Source of the DNA: Rhodothermales bacterium
GTDB taxonomy: Bacteria; Bacteroidota; Rhodothermia; Rhodothermales; Rubricoccaceae
Reading direction: 5' to 3'
NCBI GenBank assembly: GCA_038243565.1
Contig: JBBSQZ010000001.1
Span: 1-43,759 of the forward strand
DNA length: 43,759 nt
Of this stretch, positions 993 to 43,618 are shown one piece after another. The first letter of the stretch is position 1; each line of letters begins with the position of its first letter. Both the position numbers and the translations under genes were made by a program. A model generated the notes under the pieces. The model had not been told where the DNA came from, made no database searches, and worked only from the letters and a program-made list of their open reading frames with translations.

Positions 993-1090
993 AGGGTACA
1001 GGGGGAAGTGGAAATGCATGTCTACCTGCCGCTACGCTTTTACCTCGCTGTCTCTTCCACCTTTCAACCCTTTCCACCTTCAACCCTCCG
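993..1090. repeat. Heptad-periodic hairpin element (degenerate) filling the GMC-stop to GH1-start gap
   Basis: 5' arm gaagggtacagggggaagtggaaatgc. 3' arm cttccacctttcaaccctttccaccttcaaccctccg ends at the ATG at 1091. Confidence 0.55.
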
Positions 1091-2906: not shown

Positions 2907-5408
2907 TCAGAGCGCCGCGACGGCGGCATCGGGGATCCAGCCGTCGCGGCCGTCCGTGCGGACGGCCCGCCACGTGCCGCGGCGCTCGCCCAGGCGCACG
3001 AGCATGCCCGGCGCCAGCGCCGCGCCCTCGGCCGCCTCCGGCGTCGGCTCCACGCGGACGCCCGCGGCCGTCAGCACGACGCCCTGGGGCCGCGACGCCT
3101 CGGCGAGCGTCGAGGCGGCGCCGGCGACGGCAAACAAGCCCAGCGCCCCGACGACGAGGGCGCCGCGGCGCCGCGCGTTCAGGAACAGCGCCAGCGCGAC
3201 GTAGACGAGCGCGAGGGCGAGCGCGACGAGGCCCGCCGGGCCCGCGACGCTGTGGGCGATGCGCCACGCGCGGGCGACCGCCGTCTCGGCCGGGGCGCCG
3301 GCGAGCGACCGGGCCAGCGCCGCATTCTGGCGGATCGGCACGCTCAGCGGCGCGAGGCGTGCGGCGCGCTCGGTGTGCAGCCGCGCCGCGCCGGCGTCGC
3401 CTCGGGCAAGCGCGAGCGTCCCCAGGTCGTGCTCGACGGCGGCCGAGACGCGCCCGGCCGCGCGCCCGGCATCGGCGGCACCAGCGAAGGCGGCCGCGGC
3501 GCCGGCCGAGTCGCCCTCGGCGGCGAGCTGCGAGCCGAGCGCCACGAGGCGGTTCGCCTCGGCGAGGCCCTGCGCGTGCGCGCCCGTCGCTGCGAGCAGG
3601 ACGAGCGCCGCGACGGCAGCCCGGCGAGCGATGCGCCGCGGCGCCGGCCGGTCGGCCGCGTCGATGGAGAAGAGCGTCGCGTCCGCTTCTGCAATCGCCT
3701 CGGCCGGCGTCGTGCGGGCCAGCGCCGGTGCGAACTGGCCGACGTCGAGCGCGGCGAGGACGGCGACGAGGCGGTCGGACTCGGGGACATGGCGATCCGC
3801 GAGCGCCTCGGCGAGTGCCGTGCGGTCGAGGCCCGTCGCGGCGATGCCGTAGCGGTCCGAGAGGAAGCCGTGGACGGCGCGCTCGGCCGCTGCGCAGGCG
3901 CCCGGCCCCGAGAGCGCGCGCGCCTCGGCGAGGCGCGCCTGCGCTGCCGCGTGGGCGGCGCGACGGCGGTTCTCGGGCGTGTCGGCCTCGGCGAGGCGGC
4001 GGCGGCGGCGGACGCCTGCGGCGAGAGCGAGTGCCAGCGCCGGAATGCCGAGTCCTGCGCCGAGGGCGGTCCACAGGATCCAGACGGGCATGCCCGGGCG
4101 CTGCCACGTCGCCTCGGCGATGAGGCCGGCTGCTGGACCCGCCGCAGCGGGGCGCGGCGTCCCGTCGGGCGCGGCGCCCGAGACGGCGACCTGCGCGGAG
4201 TCGGTCCGGAGCGTGCTGTACTGGCCCGCCTCAGGGTCGAAGTAGGACCAGACGGCCGGCGGCACGTCCAGCGGGCCGCCGCCCTGCGGGACGAGCGTGA
4301 ACGTGAACGTGCGCGTTCCTCGGACCGCGTTGCCGGTGCGGTCGATGTCCGAGTCGTCGCGCGGCGGGAAGACGTCGGCGCCGGGCGGCGTGCGGAGGGC
4401 GGGCGCGGCGAGCGTCGCGAGGTTGCCCGTGCCCGAGATCGTGACGGCGAGCTGCACCGGGTCCCCGGCCGAGGCGGTGCGCGCGACGGGCACCGCGGCC
4501 ATCGTGTACTGCCCGACGGCGCCGGAGAAGCCGGCCGGCGCGCCCGGCGGCAGCGGCGCCACGTCCAGCGTCACCGCCGGCGCCGTCACGTCGGCCTGGT
4601 CGAGGCCCTGGGAGAAGGGCGAGAAGAACGGCGCGAACGGGTCGTTGGGGTCGTTCGCGAACGGGCTGAGGCTCACGAAGTCGACCGAGAACGTCATCGG
4701 CGGCAGCGTGAGGCGGCCGTCGCGCGTCGGGAAGAGGGCGACGCGGCGCAGCGTCACCGCCTCGAACGCGCGCCCGCCGAGCGTGACGCCGTGCGGGACC
4801 GTGGAGGCGACGGCGAGCTCCTCGCGCCAGAAGCCGGGCGCGTCCCACGAGCCCGTCACGAGCGTCTGCCGCGGCTGCAGGCGGGGGTCGAAGTACAGCA
4901 CCACGTCGGCCACGACCTGCTGCCCGACGACGGCGCTCGCCTTCGACAGCTCGACGCGGGCGAAGAGGTCGCGGCGCTGACCCGGCGCGGGGCGCGGCGC
5001 GGGCGCCGTGCCCGGCGCGGCCTGCGGCGTCTGCGTCACCGTGATGCTCGCCGCGGCGACGGCCATCGTGCGGCCGCCGGTGGTGAAGCGGAGCGGCCCG
5101 ATGCGGGCGGGGCCGGGGCGGACGGCCGTGTAGGTCCACGTGAGCTCGCGCTCGGTCTGCCCGTTGACCTGCGCCATCACGTCGGACGTCGGCAGGCTCT
5201 GCGTCGGCCGCAGGCCGGCGGTCGTAGGCGGCGTCTGGACGGCGTCGCCCGTCCCGCCCTCGATCGTGAGCGTGTACGCCACCTGCCCGCCGACGCCGAC
5301 GAGCGTCGGCGAGACGCGGGCGGTCGCGCGGGGCTGGGCGTGGGCGGCGGCGCAGAGCACGAGGGCGAGCGTGGCCGCGGCGAGGCGGTTCAGTAGGGAG
5401 GGCGTCAC
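2907..5408 (-). CDS. BatD-like protein fused to a BatE-like TPR + SH3 module
   Basis: The N-terminus has a signal peptide and BatD-like repeats, followed by a TM segment (VWILWTALGAGLGIPALALALAAG). A second signal-like segment (AAVAALVLLAATGAHAQ) is followed by a TPR-like region, TM helices and a C-terminal SH3-like tail (RGTWRAVRTDGRDGWIP). The GTG start overlaps the upstream stop (GTGA). Confidence 0.7.
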   Translation of the reverse strand: MTPSLLNRLAAATLALVLCAAAHAQPRATARVSPTLVGVGGQVAYTLTIEGGTGDAVQTPPTTAGLRPTQSLPTSDVMAQVNGQTERELTWTYTAVRPGPARIGPLRFTTGGRTMAVAAASITVTQTPQAAPGTAPAPRPAPGQRRDLFARVELSKASAVVGQQVVADVVLYFDPRLQPRQTLVTGSWDAPGFWREELAVASTVPHGVTLGGRAFEAVTLRRVALFPTRDGRLTLPPMTFSVDFVSLSPFANDPNDPFAPFFSPFSQGLDQADVTAPAVTLDVAPLPPGAPAGFSGAVGQYTMAAVPVARTASAGDPVQLAVTISGTGNLATLAAPALRTPPGADVFPPRDDSDIDRTGNAVRGTRTFTFTLVPQGGGPLDVPPAVWSYFDPEAGQYSTLRTDSAQVAVSGAAPDGTPRPAAAGPAAGLIAEATWQRPGMPVWILWTALGAGLGIPALALALAAGVRRRRRLAEADTPENRRRAAHAAAQARLAEARALSGPGACAAAERAVHGFLSDRYGIAATGLDRTALAEALADRHVPESDRLVAVLAALDVGQFAPALARTTPAEAIAEADATLFSIDAADRPAPRRIARRAAVAALVLLAATGAHAQGLAEANRLVALGSQLAAEGDSAGAAAAFAGAADAGRAAGRVSAAVEHDLGTLALARGDAGAARLHTERAARLAPLSVPIRQNAALARSLAGAPAETAVARAWRIAHSVAGPAGLVALALALVYVALALFLNARRRGALVVGALGLFAVAGAASTLAEASRPQGVVLTAAGVRVEPTPEAAEGAALAPGMLVRLGERRGTWRAVRTDGRDGWIPDAAVAAL

Positions 5409-6760: not shown

Positions 6761-6885
6761 ATGCAGTTTGGAGTTTGGAGTTTGAAGGTTGGAGAGGTCC
6801 TGCTTGAGACGGAGTTTTCTTCAAACTGTTGGGCCACTGTGTTCCTACGTCCTCGCGCCTGTTCCCTCTCCAACCTTCAAACTGC
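6761..6885. repeat. Heptad-periodic hairpin element, GTTTGRA subfamily (intra-operon, batB stop to TPR start)
   Basis: Arms are atgcagtttggagtttggagtttgaaggttggagagg (6761-6797) and cctctccaaccttcaaactgc (6865-6885). Confidence 0.85.
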
Positions 6886-7918: not shown

Positions 7919-8012
7919 GGGGGATTGGGAAATGGCGACTGGGAAATGGAGGGCTGGAGAGAGGCGGCGTTGCGTTCAGCCAGTCCCCACTTCCCATTTC
8001 CCAGTCCCCATC
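7919..8012. repeat. Heptad-periodic hairpin element, GGGAAAT subfamily (intra-operon, batA stop to batB start)
   Basis: 5' arm gggggattgggaaatggcgactgggaaatggagggctggagagagg. 3' arm cagtccccacttcccatttcccagtccccatc. Confidence 0.8.
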
Positions 8013-8988
8013 ATGGCACGCGCCGGAGCCGGGTGCTGGCGAGGACGGACGCGGCGAGGAGGCACAGCAGCGCGGGCCAGAGCGCCCACATGTACAGCTC
8101 CTCGACGTCCAGAAGAACGGTTTCGTCGATGCGGGTCTTCTCGAGCTCGCCGATGGCCGCGTAGATCGAGCGCAGCGCCTCGACGTCGGTCGCGCGGAAG
8201 TAGCGGCCGCCGGTCGTCTCGGCGACGGCGCGCAGCGTGGCCTCGTCGATCTGGGCGGGCGGGCCGCCGAGGAAGCCGCCGAAGGGGCCGGAGCCCGGGA
8301 GCGTCCCGCTGTCCGTGCCGACGCCGATGGCGTAGATGCGGACGCCGAGCGCGCGCGCCGCCTCGGCGGCCGTCTGCGGGTCGATCTGGCCGCGGTTGCT
8401 CTGGCCGTCGGTGAGCAGGATGATGACCTTCGAGGCGGCGTCCGAGTCGCGCAGGCGCGCCGCCGACGTCGCGATGGCGGTGCCGATGGCGGTGCCGTCC
8501 TCGATCACGCCCATCCGGACCTCGCGGAGCATCGTCAGCAGGAACGGGTAGTCCAGCGTCAGCGGCGCCTGCGTGTACGCCTGCGCCGCGAAGACGACGA
8601 GGCCGACGCGGTCCGACGTGCGGCCGCGGACAAACTCGGCGGCGACGGCCTTGGCCGCCTCGAAGCGGTTCGGCGGGAAGTCCTCGGCCGTCATCGAGGT
8701 CGACGCGTCGAGCGCGAGCATGATGTCGATGCCTTCCGAGGAGCGGGCGACGGACGCGTCGCGGCGCTGCGGCCGCGCCAGCGCGATCACGGCGAGCGCG
8801 AGCGCGGCCATCCGCAGCGCGCCGGGCAGCCAGCCGAGGCGCGCCCAGCCCGCCGCCGGCAGGCCCGCCGCGTCGCCCGCCGCCGAGAAGCGGACGCCCG
8901 GCGCTGCCCCACGCCCGCGCCGCGCGTGCCACGCGAGCGCGGGCACGGCGAGGAGCAGCAGGAGCCAGAGCGGCGAGGCGAAGGTCAC
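8011..8988 (-). CDS. batA: VWA-domain membrane protein BatA
   Basis: GTG start in a GTGA overlap with the upstream gene. MTFASPLWLL..., MIDAS motif DIMLALDASTSM, IILLTDGQSN, and a C-terminal TM. Confidence 0.8.
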   Translation of the reverse strand: MTFASPLWLLLLLAVPALAWHARRGRGAAPGVRFSAAGDAAGLPAAGWARLGWLPGALRMAALALAVIALARPQRRDASVARSSEGIDIMLALDASTSMTAEDFPPNRFEAAKAVAAEFVRGRTSDRVGLVVFAAQAYTQAPLTLDYPFLLTMLREVRMGVIEDGTAIGTAIATSAARLRDSDAASKVIILLTDGQSNRGQIDPQTAAEAARALGVRIYAIGVGTDSGTLPGSGPFGGFLGGPPAQIDEATLRAVAETTGGRYFRATDVEALRSIYAAIGELEKTRIDETVLLDVEELYMWALWPALLCLLAASVLASTRLRRVP

Positions 8989-9983
8989 GATGCGGAGGGC
9001 GGAGGGCGGAGAGCGGAGGGCGGCGGTGCTGAAGCAGGCGGCGGCGCTGGTACGGATGCGGCGGCCGCGCGCTCCGCCTCCAGGAGATGCGCCTCGACGG
9101 CGCCGACGGCCGTCCGCGCCTCCGTAGCCGCCTCGTCGGCGCGGGCGGGCGACGGCGCGATGCCGGCGTAGGCGACGAGGTCGGCGAGGGCGAGCACGCG
9201 GCGCGTGGCGTCGCGTGCGTCAGACGGGACGCGGGCGTCGTGGGCGAGGGCGGCGTCGATCTCGTCGGTCGTGGACTCGAGCGCGGGCAGGCCGAGGCGC
9301 CGGGCGAGGTAGACGCGCAGCGCCTCGCGGGCGCCGAGCGCGCGCTCGGTCGGGGACTCGGGCAGCGCGTCGAGCGCGGCCGTTGCCTCGGGGAACGGCT
9401 CGGTGCGGGGAAGGGCAGGACGGGCGCGGCGTTTCCAGCGCAGGAACAGCCATGCGCCGACGCCGGCGAGGACGAGGGCAAGCGCGCCGAGCGCGAGCCA
9501 CACGGGCAGCAGGCCGGGGAAATCGTCCGGCGGGCCGAGCGGCGCCGGCGTCGTGTCGCCGCCACGAATCAGGCTGCGGACGGGCAGGACGACGACGCCC
9601 GACGCGGCCGAGACGGTGTCGCGCCCGACGGCGAGGCGGACGGGGATCGGCCCGACACGCGCCGTGTCGACGGCGAAGACGGCGACCTCGTAGACCGCGC
9701 TGTCCGTGCGGATGCTCCCGCGCACGACGGGCGGCAGGCGCGTCACGGAGAACGCCTCGGCGTCGCCGAACGAGACGAGCGGGGCGGTCTCGGCGCTGCC
9801 GGCCGGCACGTCCGGGAAGACGGCCGACTGCCCGGGCCCGTGGTCCACGGCGACGGCGACGCGGACGCGCTCGCCGGGCGAGACGCTGTCCGCGAGGACC
9901 GTCAGCCGCGCCGGCCGCTGCGCCGCGGCGGCGCTCGGCAGCGCAGCCATCGCGCAGATCAGGGACAGGAAGCGCGTCGTCAT
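8985..9983 (-). CDS. Secreted/membrane protein, DUF4381-like (position typical between DUF58 and BatA)
   Basis: Signal peptide (MTTRFLSLICAMAALPSAAAAQ), a central TM (LLPVWLALGALALVLAGVGAWLFLRW) and a helical C-terminal half. ATGA overlap with DUF58. The last ~12 codons are encoded by a heptad repeat tract. Confidence 0.55.
   Translation of the reverse strand: MTTRFLSLICAMAALPSAAAAQRPARLTVLADSVSPGERVRVAVAVDHGPGQSAVFPDVPAGSAETAPLVSFGDAEAFSVTRLPPVVRGSIRTDSAVYEVAVFAVDTARVGPIPVRLAVGRDTVSAASGVVVLPVRSLIRGGDTTPAPLGPPDDFPGLLPVWLALGALALVLAGVGAWLFLRWKRRARPALPRTEPFPEATAALDALPESPTERALGAREALRVYLARRLGLPALESTTDEIDAALAHDARVPSDARDATRRVLALADLVAYAGIAPSPARADEAATEARTAVGAVEAHLLEAERAAAASVPAPPPASAPPPSALRPPPSAS
8992..9026. 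repeat. Tandem heptad tract (GCGGAGG)x5; on the minus strand it is C-rich and abuts the batA start
   Basis: gcggagg gcggagg gcggaga gcggagg gcggcgg. It also encodes the C-terminal [13 protein letters not shown] of the upstream ORF. Confidence 0.8.
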
Positions 9984-10873: not shown

Positions 10874-10896
10874 GGACGGCGGAAGGCGGAGGGTTG
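10874..10896. repeat. Heptad tract (GGAnGGn)x3; on the minus strand it is C-rich and abuts the proposed DUF58 TTG start
   Basis: ggacggc ggaaggc ggagggt. It is the inverted complement of the purQ leader tract ~400 nt away. Confidence 0.6.
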
Positions 10897-11272: not shown

Positions 11273-11298
11273 CGGTGTAGTGGGGTCCGCGGCAGATT

Positions 11299-11324
11299 CC
11301 GCCCTCCGCCCTCCGCCCTCCGCC
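11299..11324. repeat. Tandem heptad tract (CCGCCCT)x3.7 ending at the purQ ATG
   Basis: ccgccct ccgccct ccgccct ccgcc, followed by ATG. Confidence 0.85.
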
Positions 11325-17254: not shown

Positions 17255-17488
17255 GCGCGCAAGCTAGGCGGCCGAGCGGCCGGCGTCTAGGAAGCGGCCG
17301 AAAAGACGGCGCCGCGGGATGCCGCGGCGCGATGATTCGAACGATGCGGAGCGCCTGACCTGTCCGTCTGCCGGGGCGCTCGGCGCGGAGCACGGTGAAC
17401 CGGGTGTGGTGCTCGGGCCGAGACGCGCCACCGGCGCTACGGCGGCGGCGGTGGACCGATCTTGTCCGCCTTGCCTTCCGTCCTTGCC

Positions 17489-18379: not shown

Positions 18380-18403
18380 CGCGCTGGTTTAGGCTGACGC
18401 CGC

Positions 18404-18503
18404 GAGAGTTTGGAGTTTGAAGTTTGGGGAACGTGGAGTGGAGTGAAAGCAAGCCGTCCCGATGGTCGCACGGTCTACCACCTCTTCAAACTTCAAACTG
18501 CAT
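18404..18503. repeat. Heptad-periodic hairpin element, GTTTGRA subfamily (between convergent dapF and ubiE)
   Basis: Arms are gagagtttggagtttgaagtttgggg and cctcttcaaacttcaaactgcat. The ubiE stop is followed on its own strand by aatgcagtttgaag. Confidence 0.85.
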
Positions 18504-18504
18504 T

Positions 18505-24958: not shown

Positions 24959-25057
24959 GGGGGAAATGGGGAACGGGGAATGGGGAATGGGAACTGCACG
25001 TCCGCAGGCCGAGGCTCATCCCTCGCCGGTCCCCAGTTCCCAGTCCCCAGCCCCCAG
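24959..25057. repeat. Heptad-periodic hairpin element, GGGGAAT subfamily (menB stop to menA)
   Basis: 5' arm gggggaaatggggaacggggaatggggaatgggaactg. 3' arm cggtccccagttcccagtccccagcccccag. Confidence 0.8.
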
Positions 25058-25987: not shown

Positions 25988-26015
25988 GAGACGCCCCGGC
26001 GGGGCGTCTCTACGG
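25988..26015. repeat. REP-like palindrome with CTAC tail
   Basis: gagacgcccc-ggc-ggggcgtctc followed by tacgg. The same unit recurs at 43478-43510 and inverted at 43329-43353. Confidence 0.75.
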
Positions 26016-27018: not shown

Positions 27019-28379
27019 TCCCGGACCCGATCCGCGCGCAGGCCGACGCGCATCCCGACGCCGCGGCCGTCGTCACCGACGCAGGCACGTGGACGTGGGA
27101 GGACCTCGACGCCCGCGTCGCGGCCTGCGCCGCCCGCCTCGAGGAGTCGGGCGAGGCGCGTGTCGCCGTCGTCTCGCGGCCGAGCGCCGAGTTCGTCGTG
27201 CTGCTGTTTGGGGCACTCCGCGCGGGCGCTTTGCTCGTGCCACTCGCGCCGCGCTGGCCGGCCGCCGCGGTCGAGGAGACGGCGCAGCGCCTCGGCCTTC
27301 GCCTTGTGCTGGGCGAGGCTGACCTTGGCGAGATCGCACGTCCGGGCAGGGCAGCGAAGAGGCCCGTGCCTCCGATCGAGGCGTCGCAGCCGTGGACCGT
27401 CGTCCACACGTCCGGCACGTCGGGCGAGCCGAAGGCCGTGCTGCACACGGCGGGCAACCACGCGGCGAGCGCGCGCGGCGTGAGCGCGCGCCTCGGCCTG
27501 CGGGCCGGCGACACGTGGCTCCTCGACCTCCCGATGCACCACGTTGGCGGACTGGGCATGGCCGTGCGGTGCGCTCTCGCTGGCGCCGCGATGGCGATCC
27601 CCGCGCCCGGGACGGGCACGGCCGAGGCGCTCCGCCGCTTCCGCCCGACGCACGCGTCGCTCGTCTCGACACAGCTCTTCCGCCTGCTCCGCGACGACCC
27701 CGCCGCCGGCGCAGGGCTCCGCGCGATCCTGCTCGGCGGCAGCGCCATCGCCCCCGGTCTCCTCGACGCCGCCGTCGACGCCGGCCTGCCCGTGTGCATC
27801 GGCTACGGGATGACCGAGGCGACCTCGACCGTCACGATGACTGCGCCTGGCGCAGACCGCGCGGCGCTCGACACCTCCGGTACCGTCCTGCCCGAGCGCG
27901 AACTCCGCATCGCGGCGGACGGCGAGATCGAGATCCGCGGCGCGACGCTCGCTGCTGGCACGCTCACGGACGCGGGGCTCGTGCCGCTGCCGCTCACGCC
28001 CGACGGCTGGTTCCGCACCGGCGACCGCGGGGCGCTCGACGCCACGGGGCGCCTCGTCGTGGCCGGGCGCGTGGGCAACGGGTTCGTCTCGGGCGGAGAG
28101 AACGTGCAGCCCGAGGCCGTCGAGGCCGCGCTGGCGCGACGTCCCGGCGTCGCCGAGGCCGTCGTGGTGCCCGTGCCGAGCGCCGAGTGGGGCGCGCGCC
28201 CCGTCGCCTTCGTCCGCCCGAGCGGCGCCGCGCTGCCGGACGGCCTGCGCGAGGCGCTCCGCGAGACGCTCCCGCCGCACGCCGTCCCCGTCGCGTTCAT
28301 CCCGTGGGACGGGCCCGACGGCATGAAGCCGGACCGGCGAGGGCTGGCAGAGGTAGCCCAAAGGCGGTTTAAGGTTTAA
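27015..28379 (+). CDS. menE: o-Succinylbenzoate-CoA ligase
   Basis: The ATG overlaps the menC stop (ATGA). AMP-binding motifs HTSGTSGEPKAV, GYGMTE, TGDRG. The stop TAA lies inside the AT-rich hairpin arm. Confidence 0.9.
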   Translation: MIPDPIRAQADAHPDAAAVVTDAGTWTWEDLDARVAACAARLEESGEARVAVVSRPSAEFVVLLFGALRAGALLVPLAPRWPAAAVEETAQRLGLRLVLGEADLGEIARPGRAAKRPVPPIEASQPWTVVHTSGTSGEPKAVLHTAGNHAASARGVSARLGLRAGDTWLLDLPMHHVGGLGMAVRCALAGAAMAIPAPGTGTAEALRRFRPTHASLVSTQLFRLLRDDPAAGAGLRAILLGGSAIAPGLLDAAVDAGLPVCIGYGMTEATSTVTMTAPGADRAALDTSGTVLPERELRIAADGEIEIRGATLAAGTLTDAGLVPLPLTPDGWFRTGDRGALDATGRLVVAGRVGNGFVSGGENVQPEAVEAALARRPGVAEAVVVPVPSAEWGARPVAFVRPSGAALPDGLREALRETLPPHAVPVAFIPWDGPDGMKPDRRGLAEVAQRRFKV

Positions 28380-28427
28380 CGTTTAAGGAATGGCTACACC
28401 ACCCTTAAACATTAAACCTTAAACCGC
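28364..28427. repeat. AT-rich heptad-periodic hairpin (near-perfect 25-bp stem) between convergent menE and ppiD
   Basis: Arms are gcggtttaaggtttaacgtttaagg and ccttaaacattaaaccttaaaccgc, with a 14-nt loop. The menE TAA is inside the 5' arm. Confidence 0.9.
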
Positions 28428-28432
28428 ATTTC

Positions 28433-30517
28433 TCATCCCAGCGCCTGGGAGCGGAGGTCCTGCACGTCCGCGGCGTCGCGGAGCGACTTGATCCAGGCCT
28501 GCGCGACCTGCTGGCGGCGGCGCTGGAGCAGCTCCTCGCGGATCTGCGTCTTCAGCGCCGGCGTGAGCTCGGCCGGGAGGCCGCCGCGGCGGGCCGTCGT
28601 CTGGACGACGAAGGCGGCCTGCTGGCCCTCGACGACGCCCGAGCGCTGGCCCGGCATCAGCCCGAAGGCCGCGCCGACGAGGCGCGGCTCGTCGCCGAAG
28701 CCCGCGACCGTCGGTGTCGCCATCGAGAGGTCCGAGAGGTCCACGGCCCGCTGGCCGACGGCCTGCGCGATCGCGTCGAGGCTCGCCGTCGGCGTCACCG
28801 CCTTCGCAAAGCGCTCCGTCACGACGGCCTTCTTCTTCTCGAGCGCGACGTCCGTCTCGATCTGGTCGCGGACGTCGTCGAACGGCGCCGTGCCGGCGTC
28901 GGTGATGCCCGTCACGTGGACGACGGCGAAGCCGGTGCTCGCGTCGAACGGCGTCGAGACGTCGCCGACGGAGGCCGTCCGCAGGAAGCGCATCAGCTCG
29001 CGGCCGACGTCGAGGCTGGGCACGTACGGCTGGTCCTCCTGGATCTCGAGCGGCGTCACCGTGAGGTTCTTCTCGCGGGCGGCCGCCTCGAAGTCCTGGT
29101 TCTCCTCCTGGATGTTGACGACCACGAAGTCCTCGGCCGCCTCGCGCACGGCGTCGACGTTGGCCTGGACCGGGCGCGAGACCTGGACGAGCTCGGCCTC
29201 CTGCGTGCTCTTGCCCTCGACGAGGATGAGGTGCACGCCGAACGACGTCTTGACCGGCCCGACGACCTGCCCGACGGGCGCGGCGAAGGCCGCGGCGTCG
29301 AACTCCGAGACCATCCGGCCGCGGCCGAACCACCCGAGGTCGCCGCCCTGCGCCTTGTTGGACTCGTCCGTGGACACGAGGCGGGCGGCGTCGGCGAACG
29401 AGATCTGGCCGGCCTGGATGCGCGCCTTCAGGCGCTCGGCCTCGGCCTCCTGGCCCGGCGCGAGCAGGATGTGGCGCGCGTGGACGAGCGGGCTCGCCGC
29501 GTTGCGGACGCCCGTGATGCGGGCGAGCACGGCCTGGTCGCCGGCGATGACCGGCCCGACGACGCGGCCCACGCGGAGGTCCGAGTAGACGGCCGCGGCG
29601 AGCGCGGGGTTGAGGTCGCCGGCCGAGACGAAGGCCGCCGCCGCCGGCGCGCCGGCGGCGTTCTGGGTGGCGAAGGCGGCGGGGTCTGCGGCCGAGGCGA
29701 AGCCGCCGGCGAGGCCGCGGAGCGTGCCGATGGCCCGCGCCGAGTCCGCCCGGGTCGGGGCCTTGTCGAACGAGACGACCTGGACGGCCCACGTCTTGGG
29801 CCGCTCGTAGTCGGCGCGGTGGGCGTCGTAGTAGGAGCGCAGGTCCGAGTCCGCGACCTGGATCTGCGTGTCCGGCACGTCGGCGTAGCGCAGGGCGACG
29901 GCGCGGGCGGCGGCCGTCTGCGTGCGGCGCACGAACTCGGCGTCGACCTCGGCGTCGCTCACGCGGACGGCGGCCGAGACGAGCGCCTGGAGCTTCGTCC
30001 GGCGGCGGTTGCTGCGGACCTGCTCCTCGATGGCCGAGAGCTCCTGGACGATCTGCGGGTCGGTGCTCGCAACGGCCGCAGCGAGCTGCTGGCGGTTCAC
30101 GCCGCCGACGCCGTCCGAGAAGACCTGCGCGATGAGCGGGTCCGGCTGGTCGCCGTTGATGAGCTGGAACACCTCGTCGTCCGTGACGCCGATGCCGAGG
30201 TCGTCCATCTGGCGCTCGACGATGGAGTTCGTGATGAACTCGTCGTAGGCGTTGGCCTCGATCTGCTGCTGGAGCGCGTTCGTGACCTCGACGCCCTGCG
30301 CCTGGTACTGCTGCACCTGCTGCTGGACGCGGTTGTTGAAGAGCTGCGTCTCGATGGGCCTGCCGTCGACGACGGCGACGTTGGGCCCGCCGCCGCGGCC
30401 CCCGGTGATGGCGTCGAAGAAGCCGGAGTCCTGGAGCACCCACAGCCCGCCGAAGGCCGCGACGAGGATCCAGAGGACTGCTCCGGTCCGCTCCCGCATC
30501 TTGTTCATTACGCCCAT
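28433..30517 (-). CDS. ppiD: Periplasmic chaperone/peptidyl-prolyl isomerase PpiD-like
   Basis: The N-terminus MGVMNKMRERTGAVLWILVAAFGGLWVL is a membrane anchor, followed by a SurA-N-like region and a parvulin domain (ARHILL...GGDLGWFGRGRMVSEFD...FGVHLI). Met35 of the track ORF is chosen as the start. Confidence 0.8.
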   Translation of the reverse strand: MGVMNKMRERTGAVLWILVAAFGGLWVLQDSGFFDAITGGRGGGPNVAVVDGRPIETQLFNNRVQQQVQQYQAQGVEVTNALQQQIEANAYDEFITNSIVERQMDDLGIGVTDDEVFQLINGDQPDPLIAQVFSDGVGGVNRQQLAAAVASTDPQIVQELSAIEEQVRSNRRRTKLQALVSAAVRVSDAEVDAEFVRRTQTAAARAVALRYADVPDTQIQVADSDLRSYYDAHRADYERPKTWAVQVVSFDKAPTRADSARAIGTLRGLAGGFASAADPAAFATQNAAGAPAAAAFVSAGDLNPALAAAVYSDLRVGRVVGPVIAGDQAVLARITGVRNAASPLVHARHILLAPGQEAEAERLKARIQAGQISFADAARLVSTDESNKAQGGDLGWFGRGRMVSEFDAAAFAAPVGQVVGPVKTSFGVHLILVEGKSTQEAELVQVSRPVQANVDAVREAAEDFVVVNIQEENQDFEAAAREKNLTVTPLEIQEDQPYVPSLDVGRELMRFLRTASVGDVSTPFDASTGFAVVHVTGITDAGTAPFDDVRDQIETDVALEKKKAVVTERFAKAVTPTASLDAIAQAVGQRAVDLSDLSMATPTVAGFGDEPRLVGAAFGLMPGQRSGVVEGQQAAFVVQTTARRGGLPAELTPALKTQIREELLQRRRQQVAQAWIKSLRDAADVQDLRSQALG

Positions 30518-30853: not shown

Positions 30854-31417
30854 TCAGCCGCCCATTTCGTCGCGTTCGTCTCGGTAAAACGGGTTCGATT
30901 CGGGCACGTCGAGCCCCAGGTACATCCTGGACATGCGGACGTAGTGGGCGGCGTTGGCCCGGTTCCGCTCCACCTCGGCGTCCGTCAGCGCCCGCACGAC
31001 GCGCGCCGGGCTGCCGATGACGAGCGACCGCGGCGGCACGACGGTGTTCATCGTCACGAGCGCGCCCGCCCCGACGATCGACCCGGCCCCGATCACGGCG
31101 CCGTCCAGCACGACGGCGCCCATCCCGATGAGGACGTCGTCCTCGACCGTGCAGCCGTGGACGACGGCGTTGTGCCCGACGGTCACGCCCGCCCCGAGGC
31201 GGCACGGGTGCGTCCCGCGCGAGACGTGGACGGTCGCGCTGTCCTGCACGTTCGACCCCGGCCCGATCTCGATCCAGTGCACGTCGCCGCGCAGCGAGGC
31301 GCCGTACCACACGCTCGCGCCGTCGCCGAGCGAGACGTCGCCGACGACGGCGGCCGTGGGGGCGATGAAGACGTCCGCGCCGAGGCGCGGCGCGCGGCCG
31401 AGGAAGGGGAGGGTCAT
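30854..31417 (-). CDS. Gamma-class carbonic anhydrase family / hexapeptide-repeat protein
   Basis: MTLPFLGRAPRLGADVFIAPTAAVVGDVSLGDGASVWYGASLRGD...HGC... is a left-handed beta-helix hexapeptide pattern. It is the C-terminal part of a 1210-aa chimeric shadow ORF in the track. Confidence 0.85.
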   Translation of the reverse strand: MTLPFLGRAPRLGADVFIAPTAAVVGDVSLGDGASVWYGASLRGDVHWIEIGPGSNVQDSATVHVSRGTHPCRLGAGVTVGHNAVVHGCTVEDDVLIGMGAVVLDGAVIGAGSIVGAGALVTMNTVVPPRSLVIGSPARVVRALTDAEVERNRANAAHYVRMSRMYLGLDVPESNPFYRDERDEMGG

Positions 31418-31455
31418 GGTGGATGGTGGATGGTGGATGGTGGATGGTGGATGGT
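31418..31455. repeat. Perfect tandem heptad tract (GGTGGAT)x5; on the minus strand CCATCCA x5 abuts the gamma-CA ATG
   Basis: Five exact copies span 31418-31452, and the start codon is at 31415-31417 on the minus strand. Confidence 0.9.
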
Positions 31456-31618
31456 TTGACGAGGCGCTGCGGTTTGTTCCGGCGTCCTGCCTGGCGGGGC
31501 GGGTAGCGGCTCCTCCGGGGATTCGGCTGGGTCTGGGGAATCGGACGAGCGCGGCGTCTCGGCGGGCGGCACATCGCGGCGCCCGTATCTTGCACCACTT
31601 CTCCGCCTTCTGCCGCCC

Positions 31619-33025: not shown

Positions 33026-33046
33026 CGCCGCCTCGCGCCGCGCGTT

Positions 33047-33081
33047 CGCCCCGCCTCGGACCTCCGGGGCGGGGCGTTTTT
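33047..33081 (+). terminator. Intrinsic terminator after the lipoprotein gene
   Basis: A perfect 9-bp GC stem (cgccccgcc / ggcggggcg) and a 12-nt loop, followed by ttttt. Confidence 0.7.
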
Positions 33082-33142
33082 GCGCACGGACGGAACGCCG
33101 CGCGGCGTTCCGGGTGAGCCTGCCACACGACGCCACGCCGCG

Positions 33143-34237: not shown

Positions 34238-34254
34238 GGAATATGGGCAACGAC

Positions 34255-34297
34255 GAACGGCCATCGGGGAATGCACTCCCGATGGCCGTTCTCGTTT
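34255..34297 (+). terminator. Putative intrinsic terminator after the VWA gene
   Basis: A perfect 14-bp stem (gaacggccatcggg / cccgatggccgttc) and a 9-nt loop, followed by tcgttt. Confidence 0.55.
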
Positions 34298-34406
34298 GCC
34301 CCCGCCGTTTCCCGATGCCCGTTGGTCTTTCCCGGCCGAGCGCACGCAGCGCCTCGGTCCGCCGCTGGCCGCGTCGTACGTTCGCGGCACCCTGACGCAC
34401 GCCGAC

Positions 34407-35144
34407 ATGCCCGCCACCGCCCGCCCGACGTCTCGCCCGTCCCGCGCGACGCCGCCCCGCACCGAGGCGCGTCCTGCGCCGAGCACGGAGCCGACGACCG
34501 CGACGCCAGCCGAGGCGCTCGAGGAGACGCCGTACGCGCGCTACCTCCGGACGCTCCCCGATGGCCTCAAAGCCGACCTCATCCGCGGCGAAGCCGTCAT
34601 CGACATGTCCGCCAGCGTCGCTCACGAGCTCATCTTCGGCTTCCTCTACACGCTGCTCAAGCTCTACGTCGAGGAGCGCGGGCTCGGCGTCGTGCTCGGG
34701 TCGCGGACGCTGATGCGCGTCGATGACGAGAACGGATACGAGCCCGACCTGCTCTTTGTCCGGGCCGAGCGCCTCGGCATCATCGGCGACGTGGATGTGA
34801 GCGAGCGCGTGGACCTCGCCGTCGAGATCGTCTCGCGGACGTCGGGCCGGCGCGACCGAGAGACCAAGTTCGAGGGCTACGAGCGCCTCGGCGTGCCCGA
34901 GTACTGGCTCATCGACCCGCTGCGCGGCGAGGCGACGTTCTACGCGCTCGGCGACGACGGCACCTACCGCGCGACCCCGCTCGATGCCGGCGTCTTCGCG
35001 AGCCGCGAGCTTCCCGGCTTCCGCCTCGACCCGCAGGTTCTCTTCGGCGAGACGCTCCCGCCCGTGCTGCCGCTGCTCACCGCCCTGCTCGCCGAGCCGA
35101 TGCCCGAGGCGCCGAACGCCGCAGAAGACCCCGACGCCGCGTGA
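34407..35144 (+). CDS. Uma2-family (DUF820) putative endonuclease
   Basis: YEPDLLFV...DLAVEIVS...D...K...Y...GVPEYWLIDP is the PD-(D/E)xK-like Uma2 signature. It has a Pro/Thr-rich N-terminal tail. Confidence 0.75.
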   Translation: MPATARPTSRPSRATPPRTEARPAPSTEPTTATPAEALEETPYARYLRTLPDGLKADLIRGEAVIDMSASVAHELIFGFLYTLLKLYVEERGLGVVLGSRTLMRVDDENGYEPDLLFVRAERLGIIGDVDVSERVDLAVEIVSRTSGRRDRETKFEGYERLGVPEYWLIDPLRGEATFYALGDDGTYRATPLDAGVFASRELPGFRLDPQVLFGETLPPVLPLLTALLAEPMPEAPNAAEDPDAA

Positions 35145-36040
35145 GCGTCCGTCCCAAAAAGCGCCTCGGGCAGCACTTCCTGGCCGACCCGGCCATCGTG
35201 CAGGCCATCGCGGAATCCGTCCACGTCCCGCCGGGTGGGCGCCTCGTCGAGATCGGGCCTGGCGAGGGCGTCCTGACGGCCGAGCTGCTGCGCCGCTTCC
35301 CGGACCTCGTCGCCATTGAGGTCGACCCCGAGGCCGTCGCGCACCTCCGCGCCCGTTTTCCTGGATTGGACCTCCGCGAGGCGGACGTGCTGGATGTGGA
35401 CTGGGGGGCGGTGAAGGAGGACGGGTCGGAAAAGGAAGGAGGAAAAAGGGGAGCGGGAAACGCATGCCTGTCTTCCCCTTCCCCACTTCAACCCTCCCAC
35501 CCCTCAACCCCGCTCACCGTCGTCGGCAACCTGCCGTACTACATCACGTCGCCGATCCTGTTTGCGCTGCTCGATGCCCGCGCGCACGTCGGGCAGGCCG
35601 TGGTGATGGTGCAGAAGGAGGTCGCGGATCGCTTGGTGGCGCCGCACGGCTCGAAGACGTACGGGACGCTCTCGGTCTACTTCCAGCTGTTCGCCCGCGC
35701 GCGGAAGCTCTTCGACGTGCCGCGGCACGCGTTCCGCCCGCCGCCGAACGTCGAGAGCGCCGTGATCGACGTCGACTTCTCGGTGGAGGCGCCGGACGTG
35801 CCGTTCGAGGCGCTCCAGCGGGTCGTGAAGGCGGCCTTCGGGCAGCGCCGCAAGATGTTCCGCAACAGCGTCGCGCCGCTCTTCGCCTCGGCAGGCCGCA
35901 CGATGCCCGAGCGCTTCGAGACGCTCCGCCCCGAGGCCGTCCCGCCCGAGGAATTCGTCGCCCTCGCGCAGGCGCTCGAGGGGGCCGACGGGCAAATGCA
36001 GGAGACAGAAGGCAGAGGACAGAGGACGGACGACAAATAG
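35141..36040 (+). CDS. rsmA: 16S rRNA (adenine1518/1519-N6)-dimethyltransferase RsmA/KsgA, carrying an internal ~33-codon insertion
   Basis: KKRLGQHFL, VEIGPGEGVLT, VVGNLPYYITSPI. The GTG start overlaps the Uma2 stop (GTGA). The insertion at 35414..35512 has hairpin-element composition. Confidence 0.9.
   Translation: MSVRPKKRLGQHFLADPAIVQAIAESVHVPPGGRLVEIGPGEGVLTAELLRRFPDLVAIEVDPEAVAHLRARFPGLDLREADVLDVDWGAVKEDGSEKEGGKRGAGNACLSSPSPLQPSHPSTPLTVVGNLPYYITSPILFALLDARAHVGQAVVMVQKEVADRLVAPHGSKTYGTLSVYFQLFARARKLFDVPRHAFRPPPNVESAVIDVDFSVEAPDVPFEALQRVVKAAFGQRRKMFRNSVAPLFASAGRTMPERFETLRPEAVPPEEFVALAQALEGADGQMQETEGRGQRTDDK
35405..35515. repeat. Hairpin-element-like sequence embedded in frame in rsmA
   Basis: A purine-rich half (ggtgaaggaggacgggtcggaaaaggaaggaggaaaaaggggagcgggaaacgcatgc) is followed by a pyrimidine-rich half (ctgtcttccccttccccacttcaaccctcccacccctcaaccccgctcacc). 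cttcaaccctcc is shared with the element at 1054-1090. Confidence 0.6.
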
Positions 36041-36070
36041 ATTCCGTCCTCCGTCCTCCGTCCTCCGTCC
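36011..36070. repeat. Heptad-periodic hairpin element (rsmA end to mgtE ATG)
   Basis: The 5' arm ggcagaggacagaggacggacgac lies inside the rsmA C-terminus. The loop aaatagatt contains the stop. The 3' arm (CCGTCCT)x3.9 ends at the ATG at 36071. Confidence 0.8.
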
Positions 36071-43291: not shown

Positions 43292-43328
43292 CGACCACGC
43301 ATCGCCAGGTCGCGTTCAGGCCACCGCA

Positions 43329-43510
43329 CCCGTAGAGACGCCCCGCCGGGGCGCCCCGGTCGCGGGCACGGCGTCGGAATCGGGCACGATATCGGAATCG
43401 GGCGCGACGTCGCGCGCATTTTCGGCACGTGACGACGTCTCGGCATCGTGGGCGTTCGGCGCACGGTGATGCGTGGCGGAGACGCCCCGGCGGGGCGTCT
43501 CTACGGTGGG
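43329..43510. repeat. REPIN-like doublet of inverted REP-like palindromes
   Basis: The left unit is cccgtagagacgccccgccggggcg and the right unit is ggagacgccccggcggggcgtctctacggtggg, with tails pointing outward. The spacer contains an 18-nt-period direct repeat, tcggaatcgggcRcga x2 (43374-43407). Confidence 0.7.
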
Positions 43511-43618
43511 CACCGAATGCGCGGGCAGACCTGCGCGATTCCGGCCGATGGGTTCAGGCGCCTCCGCGCCGGACGATATTCCGCACGGCGACACGCTAGC
43601 CCCGTCGCCGCCGTCTTG

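Follow-up and report, generated by a model that had tools for sequence, protein, structure and literature searches.

Two questions are raised by this locus: what kind of element is the run of C-rich heptanucleotides that ends at the start codon of a gamma-carbonic-anhydrase (gamma-CA) gene, and is it a signal for translation initiation? The tract lies in a stretch of 43,759 nt from a Rhodothermales bacterium (contig JBBSQZ010000001.1, positions 1 to 43,759), hereafter the window; these 44 kb are the part of the source genome that was sampled. An original prediction held that such tracts end exactly at the start codons of many unrelated genes and could form an unconventional initiation or leader-occlusion device in a lineage independent of Shine-Dalgarno (SD) motifs. 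The reading preferred here, with a modest balance of probability in its favour, is that the tracts are heptanucleotide simple-sequence repeats remodelled in place and not a dedicated start signal.

The window has a G+C content of 73.7%; 42 genes were mapped by codon statistics, and all intergenic regions were inspected. Because a search with mgtE retrieves Rubricoccaceae and other Rhodothermales genomes (top match: a Rubricoccaceae metagenome-assembled genome, 92% amino-acid identity), the source lineage is assigned, by sequence, to a high-GC branch of Bacteroidota within Rhodothermales. Other strains of the source genome: none on record by exact-protein look-up of gamma-CA and mgtE. The pooled set comprises the window and 28 Rhodothermales loci (436 kb, identical gene calling); gamma-CA regions of close relatives and of the isolates Rubricoccus marinus (R. 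marinus) and Rubrivirga marina were added. Loci of relatives are designated by L numbers. The sequences are almost all metagenome assemblies; perfect arrays also exist in chromosomes from long reads and, as (TACCCAG)4.9, in the isolate R. marinus. Tandem arrays were detected with Tandem Repeats Finder (TRF), and periodicity was assessed by lag-7 identity and shuffles. An Rfam scan of the entire window gave no family match.

The focal gene and the tracts and leaders that precede start codons are given below, the focal locus first.

31416 to 31455, minus strand: focal gamma-CA tract, A(CCATCCA)5CC followed by ATG (TRF: period 7, 5.7 copies, 100% match); lag-7 1.00.
30854 to 31417, minus strand: gamma-carbonic-anhydrase family gene, 187 aa; NCBIfam NF050158, residues 1-166 versus profile 1-165.
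11298 to 11324, plus strand: purQ tract, (TCCGCCC)3.9, flush with ATG 11325; lag-7 1.00; solitary, in a divergent intergenic region.
36043 to 36070, plus strand: mgtE tract, (TCCGTCC)4.0, flush with ATG 36071; lag-7 1.00; 3' arm of a hairpin.
8992 to 9023, minus strand: batA tract, (CCTCCGC)4.6; lag-7 0.89; 3 nt before GTG 8988.
10874 to 10896, minus strand: degenerate tract CCCTCCG CCTTCCG CCGTCC of a gene with Pfam DUF58; lag-7 0.75, p = 0.0008; 3 nt before TTG 10870.
6765 to 6797, minus strand: tract of a TPR/batC-like gene, (CCAAACT)4.3, then GCAUUUCCUCCCC; lag-7 0.73; 13 nt before ATG 6751.
1054 to 1090, plus strand: GH1 leader, C-rich with almost no G; period 16, lag-7 0.57.
17458 to 17488, plus strand: dapF leader, a promoter-like GATCTTG box, then 24 nt rich in C/T up to the ATG; lag-7 0.24.

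Perfect C-rich heptads flush with ATG are present, as had been claimed, at gamma-CA, purQ and mgtE. The focal tract contains no G, and the repeat register runs on through the first two letters, A and T, of the start codon (31417-31415). The claim holds in part elsewhere: the batA, DUF58 and TPR tracts are heptadic, but imperfect, and they end 3, 3 and 13 nt away from the start codon. All ten tracts listed in the original prediction are C-rich and G-poor, including those of batB, GH1, dapF and a lipoprotein gene; these four do not consist of heptads. The batB tract has a degenerate 14-nt super-unit (lag-7 0.47), and the lipoprotein-gene leader has period 11 (lag-7 0.3). GH1, dapF and the lipoprotein gene were discarded as heptad sites by this lag-7 and period analysis. 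A heptad tract is found at only about 6 of the approximately 26 start codons that have an upstream gap.

The start codons concerned agree with NCBIfam profile coordinates (purQ, 4 versus 2; batB, 3 versus 2; batA, 49 versus 51; dapF, 9 versus 3). In mgtE orthologs, the conserved PDL... N-terminus starts at the equivalent ATG or GTG. The protein database holds an identical 187-aa gamma-CA product, and homologs are mostly of 182-192 aa. The batA tract lies inside the final 13 codons of the open reading frame (ORF) 8985-9983, which thereby ends in a P/A/S-rich tail.

The period of 7 is in excess in non-coding DNA. With a threshold of at least 2.5 copies, the pooled 436 kb (58 kb non-coding, 378 kb coding) contain 36 non-coding and 18 coding arrays of period 7, a density 13 times higher in non-coding DNA (Fisher p = 2e-19). 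Every other period gives 0-8 non-coding arrays, and periods 3, 6, 9 and 12 are mainly coding. Period-7 arrays number 0.3-0.4 per kb in the window and about 0.12 per kb in Rhodothermales; control loci have 0.03 per kb (SAR116-type, 235 kb) and 0.015 per kb (distant gamma-CA, 648 kb), without any excess of period 7 over 8, 10 and 11. Tracts lie against the start codon more closely than random placement in the same intergenic region would give (six sites, combined p = 2e-4).

Start codons are not the only places marked by the tracts: their complements follow stop codons, convergent junctions included. In the window, lag-7 identity is 0.357 in the 35 nt ahead of starts and 0.403 in the 35 nt past stops (other lags, about 0.30), a signal at least as strong past stops as ahead of starts. 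Arrays are heavily G/C-skewed (e.g. 22 G to 0 C, 19 to 4, 18 to 1). On the sense strand, start-adjacent arrays are C-rich in nine cases and G-rich in one (n = 10), and stop-adjacent arrays are G-rich in 15 cases, C-rich in three and neutral in one (n = 19); the three C-rich ones are second arms of hairpins within short spacers. This polarity is obeyed by 24 of the 28 skewed boundary arrays (binomial p = 2e-4), and the G-rich complement is also present between convergent genes. Examples from relatives include tga-(GGTACGG)4...(GTACCCC)4-tccccccc-ATG, with polarity kept (L014), (GGCAGGT)8.6 immediately after a stop codon (L005), (CCATCCC)7.3 reaching an ATG (L011) and (CTTCTGC)5.4 ending 5 nt before an ATG (L010). 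No order-wide enrichment in G past stop codons was seen; the G-rich polarity is confined to arrays. The skew reverses between the start and stop sides of one gene, and therefore replication- or transcription-linked mutational strand bias cannot account for the polarity and was ruled out. Some arrays supply the stop codon itself: GGTTTAA at 28377-28379 (menE) and AGTTTGA at 6877-6879, and likewise in L004 and L017.

The skew and the copy number bear on a second explanation, in which four G-runs fold as G-quadruplexes (G4), or the complement as i-motifs, and modulate transcription or 3'-end formation; the G-rich strand would be the template upstream of starts and the RNA after stops. Four is the commonest copy number (17/50 arrays), a mode that is skewed by the TRF detection threshold; canonical G4 motifs are among the units (e.g. 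GGGGAAT, GGGCGGA, GGGATGG, GGGATTG), and the ORF-proximal polarity is that of the Xanthomonas and Nostoc repeats (PMC4692102). However, the at least four G3+ tracts per array that characterize the G4 repeats of Rehm et al. 2015 are found in only 7 of 50 arrays, and at least four G2 runs in 24 of 50. GAGTTTG, GCGTGAT, GATACGT and GGTTTAA are unable to form a stable G4, the complement of the focal unit (GGTGGAT) contains GG runs only, and paired arrays are predicted to fold as highly stable Watson-Crick hairpins, whose arms evolve in a compensatory way. This explanation is very unlikely.

Where a G-rich array faces a C-rich one, the pair gives a stem of 20-30 bp. The predicted hairpins, including the remaining part of the mgtE one, are as follows.

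36001 to 36035, plus strand: 5' arm of the rsmA-mgtE hairpin, G/A-rich heptads of GACAGAG type, within the lengthened 3' part of rsmA/ksgA.
7919 to 8012, minus strand: batA-batB intercistronic hairpin, -46.2 kcal/mol, z = -3.5.
6865 to 6883, minus strand: 5' arm of the batB-TPR hairpin, batB stop codon included; -47.5 kcal/mol, z = -3.1.
2427 to 2514 (junction folded, 2418-2512), no strand assigned: convergent-junction hairpin, (AGTTTGG)n ... (CAAACTC)n, z = -3.95.
18406 to 18499 (junction folded, 18395-18504), no strand assigned: convergent hairpin between dapF and its neighbour, (GAGTTTG)3 ... (CTTCAAA)2.3, z = -2.8.
28366 to 28425 (junction folded, 28360-28435), no strand assigned: convergent hairpin between menE and a SurA-like gene, (GGTTTAA)3.3 ... 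(CCTTAAA)3.3, z = -9.8.
24961 to 25057, plus strand: menB-menA hairpin, (GGGGAAT)4.4 after the menB stop and (GTCCCCA)4.1 (TRF, fold).

The rsmA-mgtE hairpin (-42.6 kcal/mol, z = -6.4) has the rsmA stop codon (TAG 36038-36040) in its loop; its 3' arm reaches about 4 nt from the mgtE AUG, which is predicted to be held in a short outer stem. In the batA-batB hairpin, the G-rich arm (AAATGGG-type, 7984-8012) begins at the batA stop, and the C-rich arm (7931-7959) stops 14 nt short of the batB ATG 7917. Part of the TPR-gene tract forms the 3' arm in the batB-TPR hairpin. The proposal that a 5' arm, where it exists, pairs with the C-rich tract is thus upheld by predicted folds at mgtE, batA-batB and batB-TPR. 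Leader occlusion as a general device is not: the solitary tracts of gamma-CA, purQ, batA, DUF58 and GH1 are predicted to be unpaired (z from -1.1 to +1.4, by which the mechanism was ruled out for them; the purQ leader has no significant predicted structure), and the 3' arms of the bat-operon hairpins end 14-33 nt before the start codons of batB and the TPR gene.

Heptad hairpins follow stops at four convergent junctions, and two others lie within the bat operon. No heptad hairpin of the window qualifies in a scan for canonical terminators (GC stem and U-tract of at least 5/8); their tails are GCAUUU or CUUUU. A (G)AAATGC flank recurs at arrays and, on the opposite strand, gives the short GCAUUU tail past the stem. 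The same scan found canonical terminators elsewhere, as at 33047-33076 plus TTTTT. In this region (33026-33142) the terminator is followed by a leader, conserved in L001, L002, L003 and L029, that carries the hairpin GGAACGCCGCGCGGCGTTCC and GGGTGAGC ahead of gene 33143; it may be a conserved regulatory leader.

Comparison with relatives indicates how the arrays evolve. At gamma-CA, a conserved GGAACAAACCG box is followed in the window by (CCATCCA)5. The ortholog of L049 (92% identity) has (CCCATCC)9.7, flush with ATG; its unit differs from that of the window by one base, homogenised across copies. The orthologs of L047 and L048 (90%) have a single CCCCATCC seed within a 55-nt C-rich leader and no array, and those of L130 and L131 (likewise at or above 90%) have no repeat. 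The array is missing in 4 of 6 close orthologs; in R. marinus and in orthologs further away the leader is simply C-rich, and a metagenome scan with gamma-CA gave 4-5 close relatives and no array. At mgtE, the leader of L001 reads ...GATCTTCCGCCC-ATG with one TCCGCCC, and that of the window GAT-TCCGTCC(TCCGTCC)3-ATG. Relative to L001, the window has an insertion of about 45 nt at the rsmA-mgtE junction that corresponds to the 5' arm and lengthens RsmA by about 17 codons (35990-36040). Orthologs of mgtE without a heptad tract were found. A tract that most close gamma-CA orthologs, and mgtE orthologs, do without is not a necessary initiation device.

Pairing is kept while units change. The junction of the SurA-like gene and menE reads AATGC-(GGTTTAA)3...(TTAAACC)3 in the window and AATGC-(AGTTTGG)3...(TCAAACT)3 in L049; among 28 pairs of the arms, aligned from the flank that both share, 17 are identical, 3 are changed on one side to G-U, 8 are compensatory two-sided changes and none is broken. 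At the same junction, L047 and L048 have a classical terminator, with a 14-bp GC stem and CUUUUUGUU. The menB-menA spacer measures 26-55 nt without a hairpin in L047 and 125 nt with the GGGGAAT/GTCCCCA hairpin in the window. The spacer between mgtE and the next gene is of 2 nt (L027), of about 10 nt (L002) or a hairpin of 60-100 nt, whose arms consist of unrelated heptads in different genomes (L005, GTGGGAC; L007, TCACGCA; L014, GGTACGG; L023, CCAGTGG). In these alignments, arrays are quickly gained, lost, resized and re-templated, and arm pairing is nonetheless kept; a heptad hairpin can, by position, replace a terminator.

Such turnover is also what purely neutral slippage debris would give, the polarity resulting from the purging of harmful orientations (G-rich, structured or start-bearing leaders). 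Gain, loss and unit turnover are fast, close orthologs lack arrays, and the 0.3-0.4 arrays per kb of the window compare with a single intergenic array over 20 kb in Rubricoccus marinus and none over 20 kb in Rubrivirga marina. However, all 8 double changes in the orthologous hairpin preserve pairing, this hairpin sits where a canonical terminator stands in relatives, and the G-first polarity persists between convergent genes, which are free of leader constraints. Wholly neutral debris is regarded as unlikely.

Insertion is another possible source of the arrays: heptad hairpins would be mobile elements inserted at gene ends, similar to repetitive extragenic palindromes (REP) or miniature inverted-repeat transposable elements (MITE), and the C-rich tract would be the end of the element. 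Several units recur (AGTTTGG at three loci, GGGAAAT/GGGGAAT at three or four, TCCGCCC at three), and hairpins with AGTTTGG arms and an (A)AATGC flank are found at three loci of the window and in L049. GGRAATG occurs 13 times versus 3 expected, nearly always in intergenic regions, and the rsmA-mgtE and menB-menA hairpins are insertions relative to relatives. A composite of a REP-like palindrome and (ACCCAGN)n is found at non-orthologous loci of L009 and R. marinus. Nevertheless, the loops of the AGTTTGG hairpins are unrelated, orthologous junctions carry entirely different units in different genomes, and solitary arrays expand from a local seed. No target-site duplication or terminal inverted repeat was seen, and no transposase or REP-associated tyrosine transposase (RAYT) was found among the profiled subset of window genes. 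Insertion as mobile elements is highly improbable for the heptad hairpins.

A dispersed family separate from the heptad arrays is present in the window. The REP-like perfect palindrome GAGACGCCCCGGCGGGGCGTCTC(TACGG) is intergenic at 25990-26008, 43337-43355 and 43481-43499 (6 strand-matches versus 0.2 expected) and also lies ahead of the gamma-CA gene in L130, at a distance of about 60 nt. An array of period 18, CGGGCACGACGTCGGAAT x2.8 (43363-43412), lies between two of these palindromes in the intergenic region 43292-43615 (324 nt). The composite element mentioned above (L009, 6170-6260; L132, i.e. Rubricoccus marinus, 4230-4340) includes the palindrome CTCTGGCGCCAGAGGC, GAGCG(C)GGGA(A)ACAGCTTT and (ACCCAGN)n; since it is shared by L009 and R. 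marinus, some heptad arrays may travel with, or be seeded by, a REP-like element.

Further observations concern the loci compared above. Upstream of the gamma-CA leader (31456-31500, minus strand), a box GGAACAAAC(C/T)G is followed by GCGCCTCGGTC (opposite strand, CGGTTTGTTCC); of six closely related sequences, five keep the box (window, L047, L048, L049, L131), which is a candidate promoter or operator element. For menA, a conserved N-terminus WLSAARPKTLPAAAAP, common to L047, lies upstream of the called GTG 25131. The frame is open back across the heptad hairpin, and the only canonical in-frame starts are ATG 24966 and 24987, in the GGGGAAT arm. Translation would then either include the hairpin, which would encode an N-terminal extension, or begin at a non-canonical codon. 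A gene of the Uma2 family (putative restriction endonuclease; 34296-35144) lies between gene 33143 and rsmA. It is missing at this place in L001, L002, L003, L029 and L030, and is therefore a lineage-specific insertion; a hairpin with GGAAT/GGGGAATGC motifs precedes it (34238-34295). The sole tRNA call of the window (ARAGORN, tRNA-Pro(GGG), 816-902) lies inside the coding region of gene 3-992 and is most likely a false positive of GC-rich coding DNA.

The context in which solitary tracts are found is that of ordinary leaders of the lineage. At 290 predicted starts with an upstream gap of at least 40 nt, positions -26 to -1 have a C frequency of 0.43-0.58 and a G frequency of 0.16-0.26, without any purine peak. 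GGAG, GAGG and AGGA number about 20-35 per 5-nt bin far upstream and 5, 6 and 1 in the final three bins; this depletion, with the low G content, excludes SD sites as a feature of these leaders. The base-composition profile and the independence from SD motifs are thus as had been proposed. The 'anti-SD-like' CCUCC strings are not a specific signal: raw counts of CCTCC look raised near -10, but 58 are observed versus 52.6 expected from leader composition, and this candidate was rejected. ATG and GTG triplets in leaders amount to about 0.67 of the expectation from composition.

A promoter-like box KATCYTS (TATCTTG, GATCTTG, TATCCTG) ends 20-24 nt before starts on the sense strand (of 287 upstream regions, 12 have the box end in this 5-nt bin; the antisense control is flat). 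It resembles the Bacteroidetes -7 element TAnnTTTG. Sites are found in the window at 17458-17464 and 31586-31592, and about 30 in relatives. Given the distance of the box from starts, leaders of the lineage are probably short. In a second class the box ends 6-8 nt ahead of the ATG, a spacing suggestive of leaderless mRNAs. A scan for sigma-70-type promoters gave no site; such sites are not expected in Bacteroidota.

In Bacteroidia, ribosomes disregard SD motifs, and A-rich leaders or adenines upstream serve instead (Baez et al. 2019, PMC6847099; Jha et al. 2021, PMC7797042); Rhodothermales are outside the coverage of both studies. The absence of SD motifs and the weakly folding leaders are common to Bacteroidia and to the lineage studied here, whereas leaders are A-rich in the former and C-rich and G-poor in the latter, whose G+C content is 74%.

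A lineage without SD motifs leaves room for a reader of the arrays: a single-strand RNA-binding protein with an oligonucleotide/oligosaccharide-binding (OB) fold (cold-shock protein or S1) and a footprint of about 7 nt, the arrays serving as translation enhancers in place of SD motifs. Molecules of it, aligned next to one another along the C-rich leader, would recruit SD-blind ribosomes or keep the leader clear for them. The period is strictly 7 nt despite varied units, arrays lie right before starts, and units recur at several loci. For CspB, a stoichiometry of one monomer to each heptamer is reported; for TAACTGA repeats, cold-shock proteins and S1 were put forward (PMC4679880). However, most close orthologs lack tracts, the complement is equally frequent after stops and between convergent genes, the units are too varied for a single specific reader, and most gapped starts have no heptad tract. 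Such a reader is decidedly unlikely. A broader version, to which a very low probability is given, takes the 7-nt period itself as the signal: an OB fold with a 7-nt footprint would read G-free arrays as ribosome landing pads, and complements or hairpins as 3'-end signals. If true, diverse heptads would be a periodic cis-code standing in for the SD motif and for the U-tract of terminators.

The preferred reading, repeats remodelled in place, would operate as follows. Heptads would arise in non-coding DNA, most likely via replication slippage; they would be produced locally, by amplification of a seed and homogenised unit changes. Selection would act as a filter that tolerates only G-poor sequence before start codons, so that a single orientation would survive, with a C-rich sense strand before starts and a G-rich one after stops. 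Solitary C-rich arrays would be enlarged ordinary leaders (short, without SD, C-rich and G-poor). Because it is C-rich and G-poor, a leader of this kind would be unable to fold on itself and nearly free of start codons, for which reason its expansion would be tolerated; changes in copy number could tune leader length. Paired arrays would most likely give terminator-like or 3'-end-protecting hairpins at the spots that are occupied in relatives by a canonical terminator or by a short spacer between cistrons. At the co-directional rsmA-mgtE junction, the hairpin could in addition link the mgtE leader to translation of the upstream ORF: as the entire 5' arm lies inside the rsmA ORF, a ribosome at the rsmA stop would free the mgtE leader. 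Translational coupling of the two genes is plausible. Phase-variable contingency loci, in which repeats within an ORF or a promoter spacer alter frame or spacing and which favour surface or virulence genes, were considered and rejected, the arrays being outside ORFs or in final codons and the neighbours being housekeeping genes (purQ, mgtE, gamma-CA, men, bat).

Several points weigh against remodelled slippage repeats. Slippage leaves unexplained the preference for 7 nt over 5, 8 or 10, and the G-rich arrays after stops of convergent genes, a setting without a leader to constrain them. Units that recur across loci could point to a sequence-specific reader or to a mobile element. The lack of a proper U-tract, and the position of two hairpins within the bat operon, argue against efficient termination. 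No KATCYTS box was assignable to the gamma-CA gene, for which no transcription start site was located, and genes of relatives were called by the authors' own codon-bias heuristic.

Intergenic heptameric simple-sequence repeats were reportedly defined in several studies, that of Mrazek in 2007 among them. Judged by sequence features, the arrays belong to this known class and are not a new kind of element: they consist of tandem 7-nt units (at least about 2.5 copies, with lag-7 of 0.73-1.00 in six of the ten sites of the original prediction), they are over-represented in non-coding DNA, they have an ORF-proximal polarity, and their unit and copy number differ among close relatives at gamma-CA and mgtE. 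The short tandemly repeated repetitive (STRR) heptanucleotides of heterocystous cyanobacteria include several intergenic families per genome, of unknown function; they belong to a different phylum and differ in base composition from the arrays described here. To our knowledge, neither a placement flush with start codons nor a role as hairpin arms is documented for STRR. A case from Calothrix is cited in PMC4692102.

The closest counterparts are the intergenic GGGAATC (Xanthomonas) and GGGGA(C/T)T (Nostoc) heptamers, whose function was left open (Rehm et al. 2015, PMC4692102). There, as here, tandem 7-nt units are strongly non-coding, about four units are commonest, and length and sequence differ widely among close relatives. 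The G-rich strand is the coding one up to 50 bp past stops (some arrays overlap the stop) and the non-coding one up to 50 bp before starts, a polarity that applies 'irrespective of the ORF's orientation' (PMC4692102). Inverted pairs occasionally form stem-loops, and adjoining genes are functionally unrelated. The units GGGGAAT, GGGATTG and GGGAAAT of the lineage studied here are nearly identical to those of Xanthomonas and Nostoc. Unlike these, which have one dominant unit, the window has at least six unrelated unit families in 44 kb, most of them not G4-competent, in a high-GC, SD-less Rhodothermales host. Solitary arrays in divergent regions (gamma-CA, purQ) belong to a class that is under-represented in Xanthomonas and Nostoc, and the exchange with a terminator, by position, and the compensatory arms go beyond what is described for them.

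TAACTGA heptamers are found in Beggiatoaceae, cyanobacteria and five Bacteroidetes (MacGregor 2015, PMC4679880). They too precede starts of unrelated genes by a few nt, in two to many copies and without SD; close relatives have shorter, repeat-free intergenic regions, and other heptamers co-occur in Bacteroidetes. TAACTGA is a single AT-rich unit for which horizontal spread was suggested, whereas the units described here are many, C-rich and G-poor, and apparently of local origin; hairpins of complementary arrays are prominent here.

Rho-independent terminators (U-tract-poor high-GC forms included), REP and bacterial interspersed mosaic elements (BIME) share with the heptad hairpins stable stem-loops past stops, between convergent genes and inside operons. 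The heptad hairpins differ from terminators and REP by their 20-30 bp heptad stems, their GCAUUU tail and the absence of a dispersed identical consensus.

Heptamer repeats have been noted for decades in cyanobacteria, xanthomonads, Beggiatoa and some Bacteroidetes; their function and their preference for 7 nt are unexplained. New here are the host lineage, the many unit families per genome, the link with C-rich SD-less leaders, the substitution for terminators and the compensatory arms. The presence of many units in one genome makes periodicity and G/C skew separable from sequence. Orthologous loci with 0, 5 and about 10 copies, and one junction that has either a heptad hairpin or a canonical terminator in close relatives, are favourable test cases, and cultured relatives are available (Rubricoccus, Rubrivirga). 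Because arrays enter the ends of ORFs (the repeat providing stop codons, protein tails of low complexity and uncertain starts), gene callers will err systematically at these places. The C-rich leaders of this 74% GC branch of Bacteroidota bear on how start codons are chosen without a Shine-Dalgarno motif.

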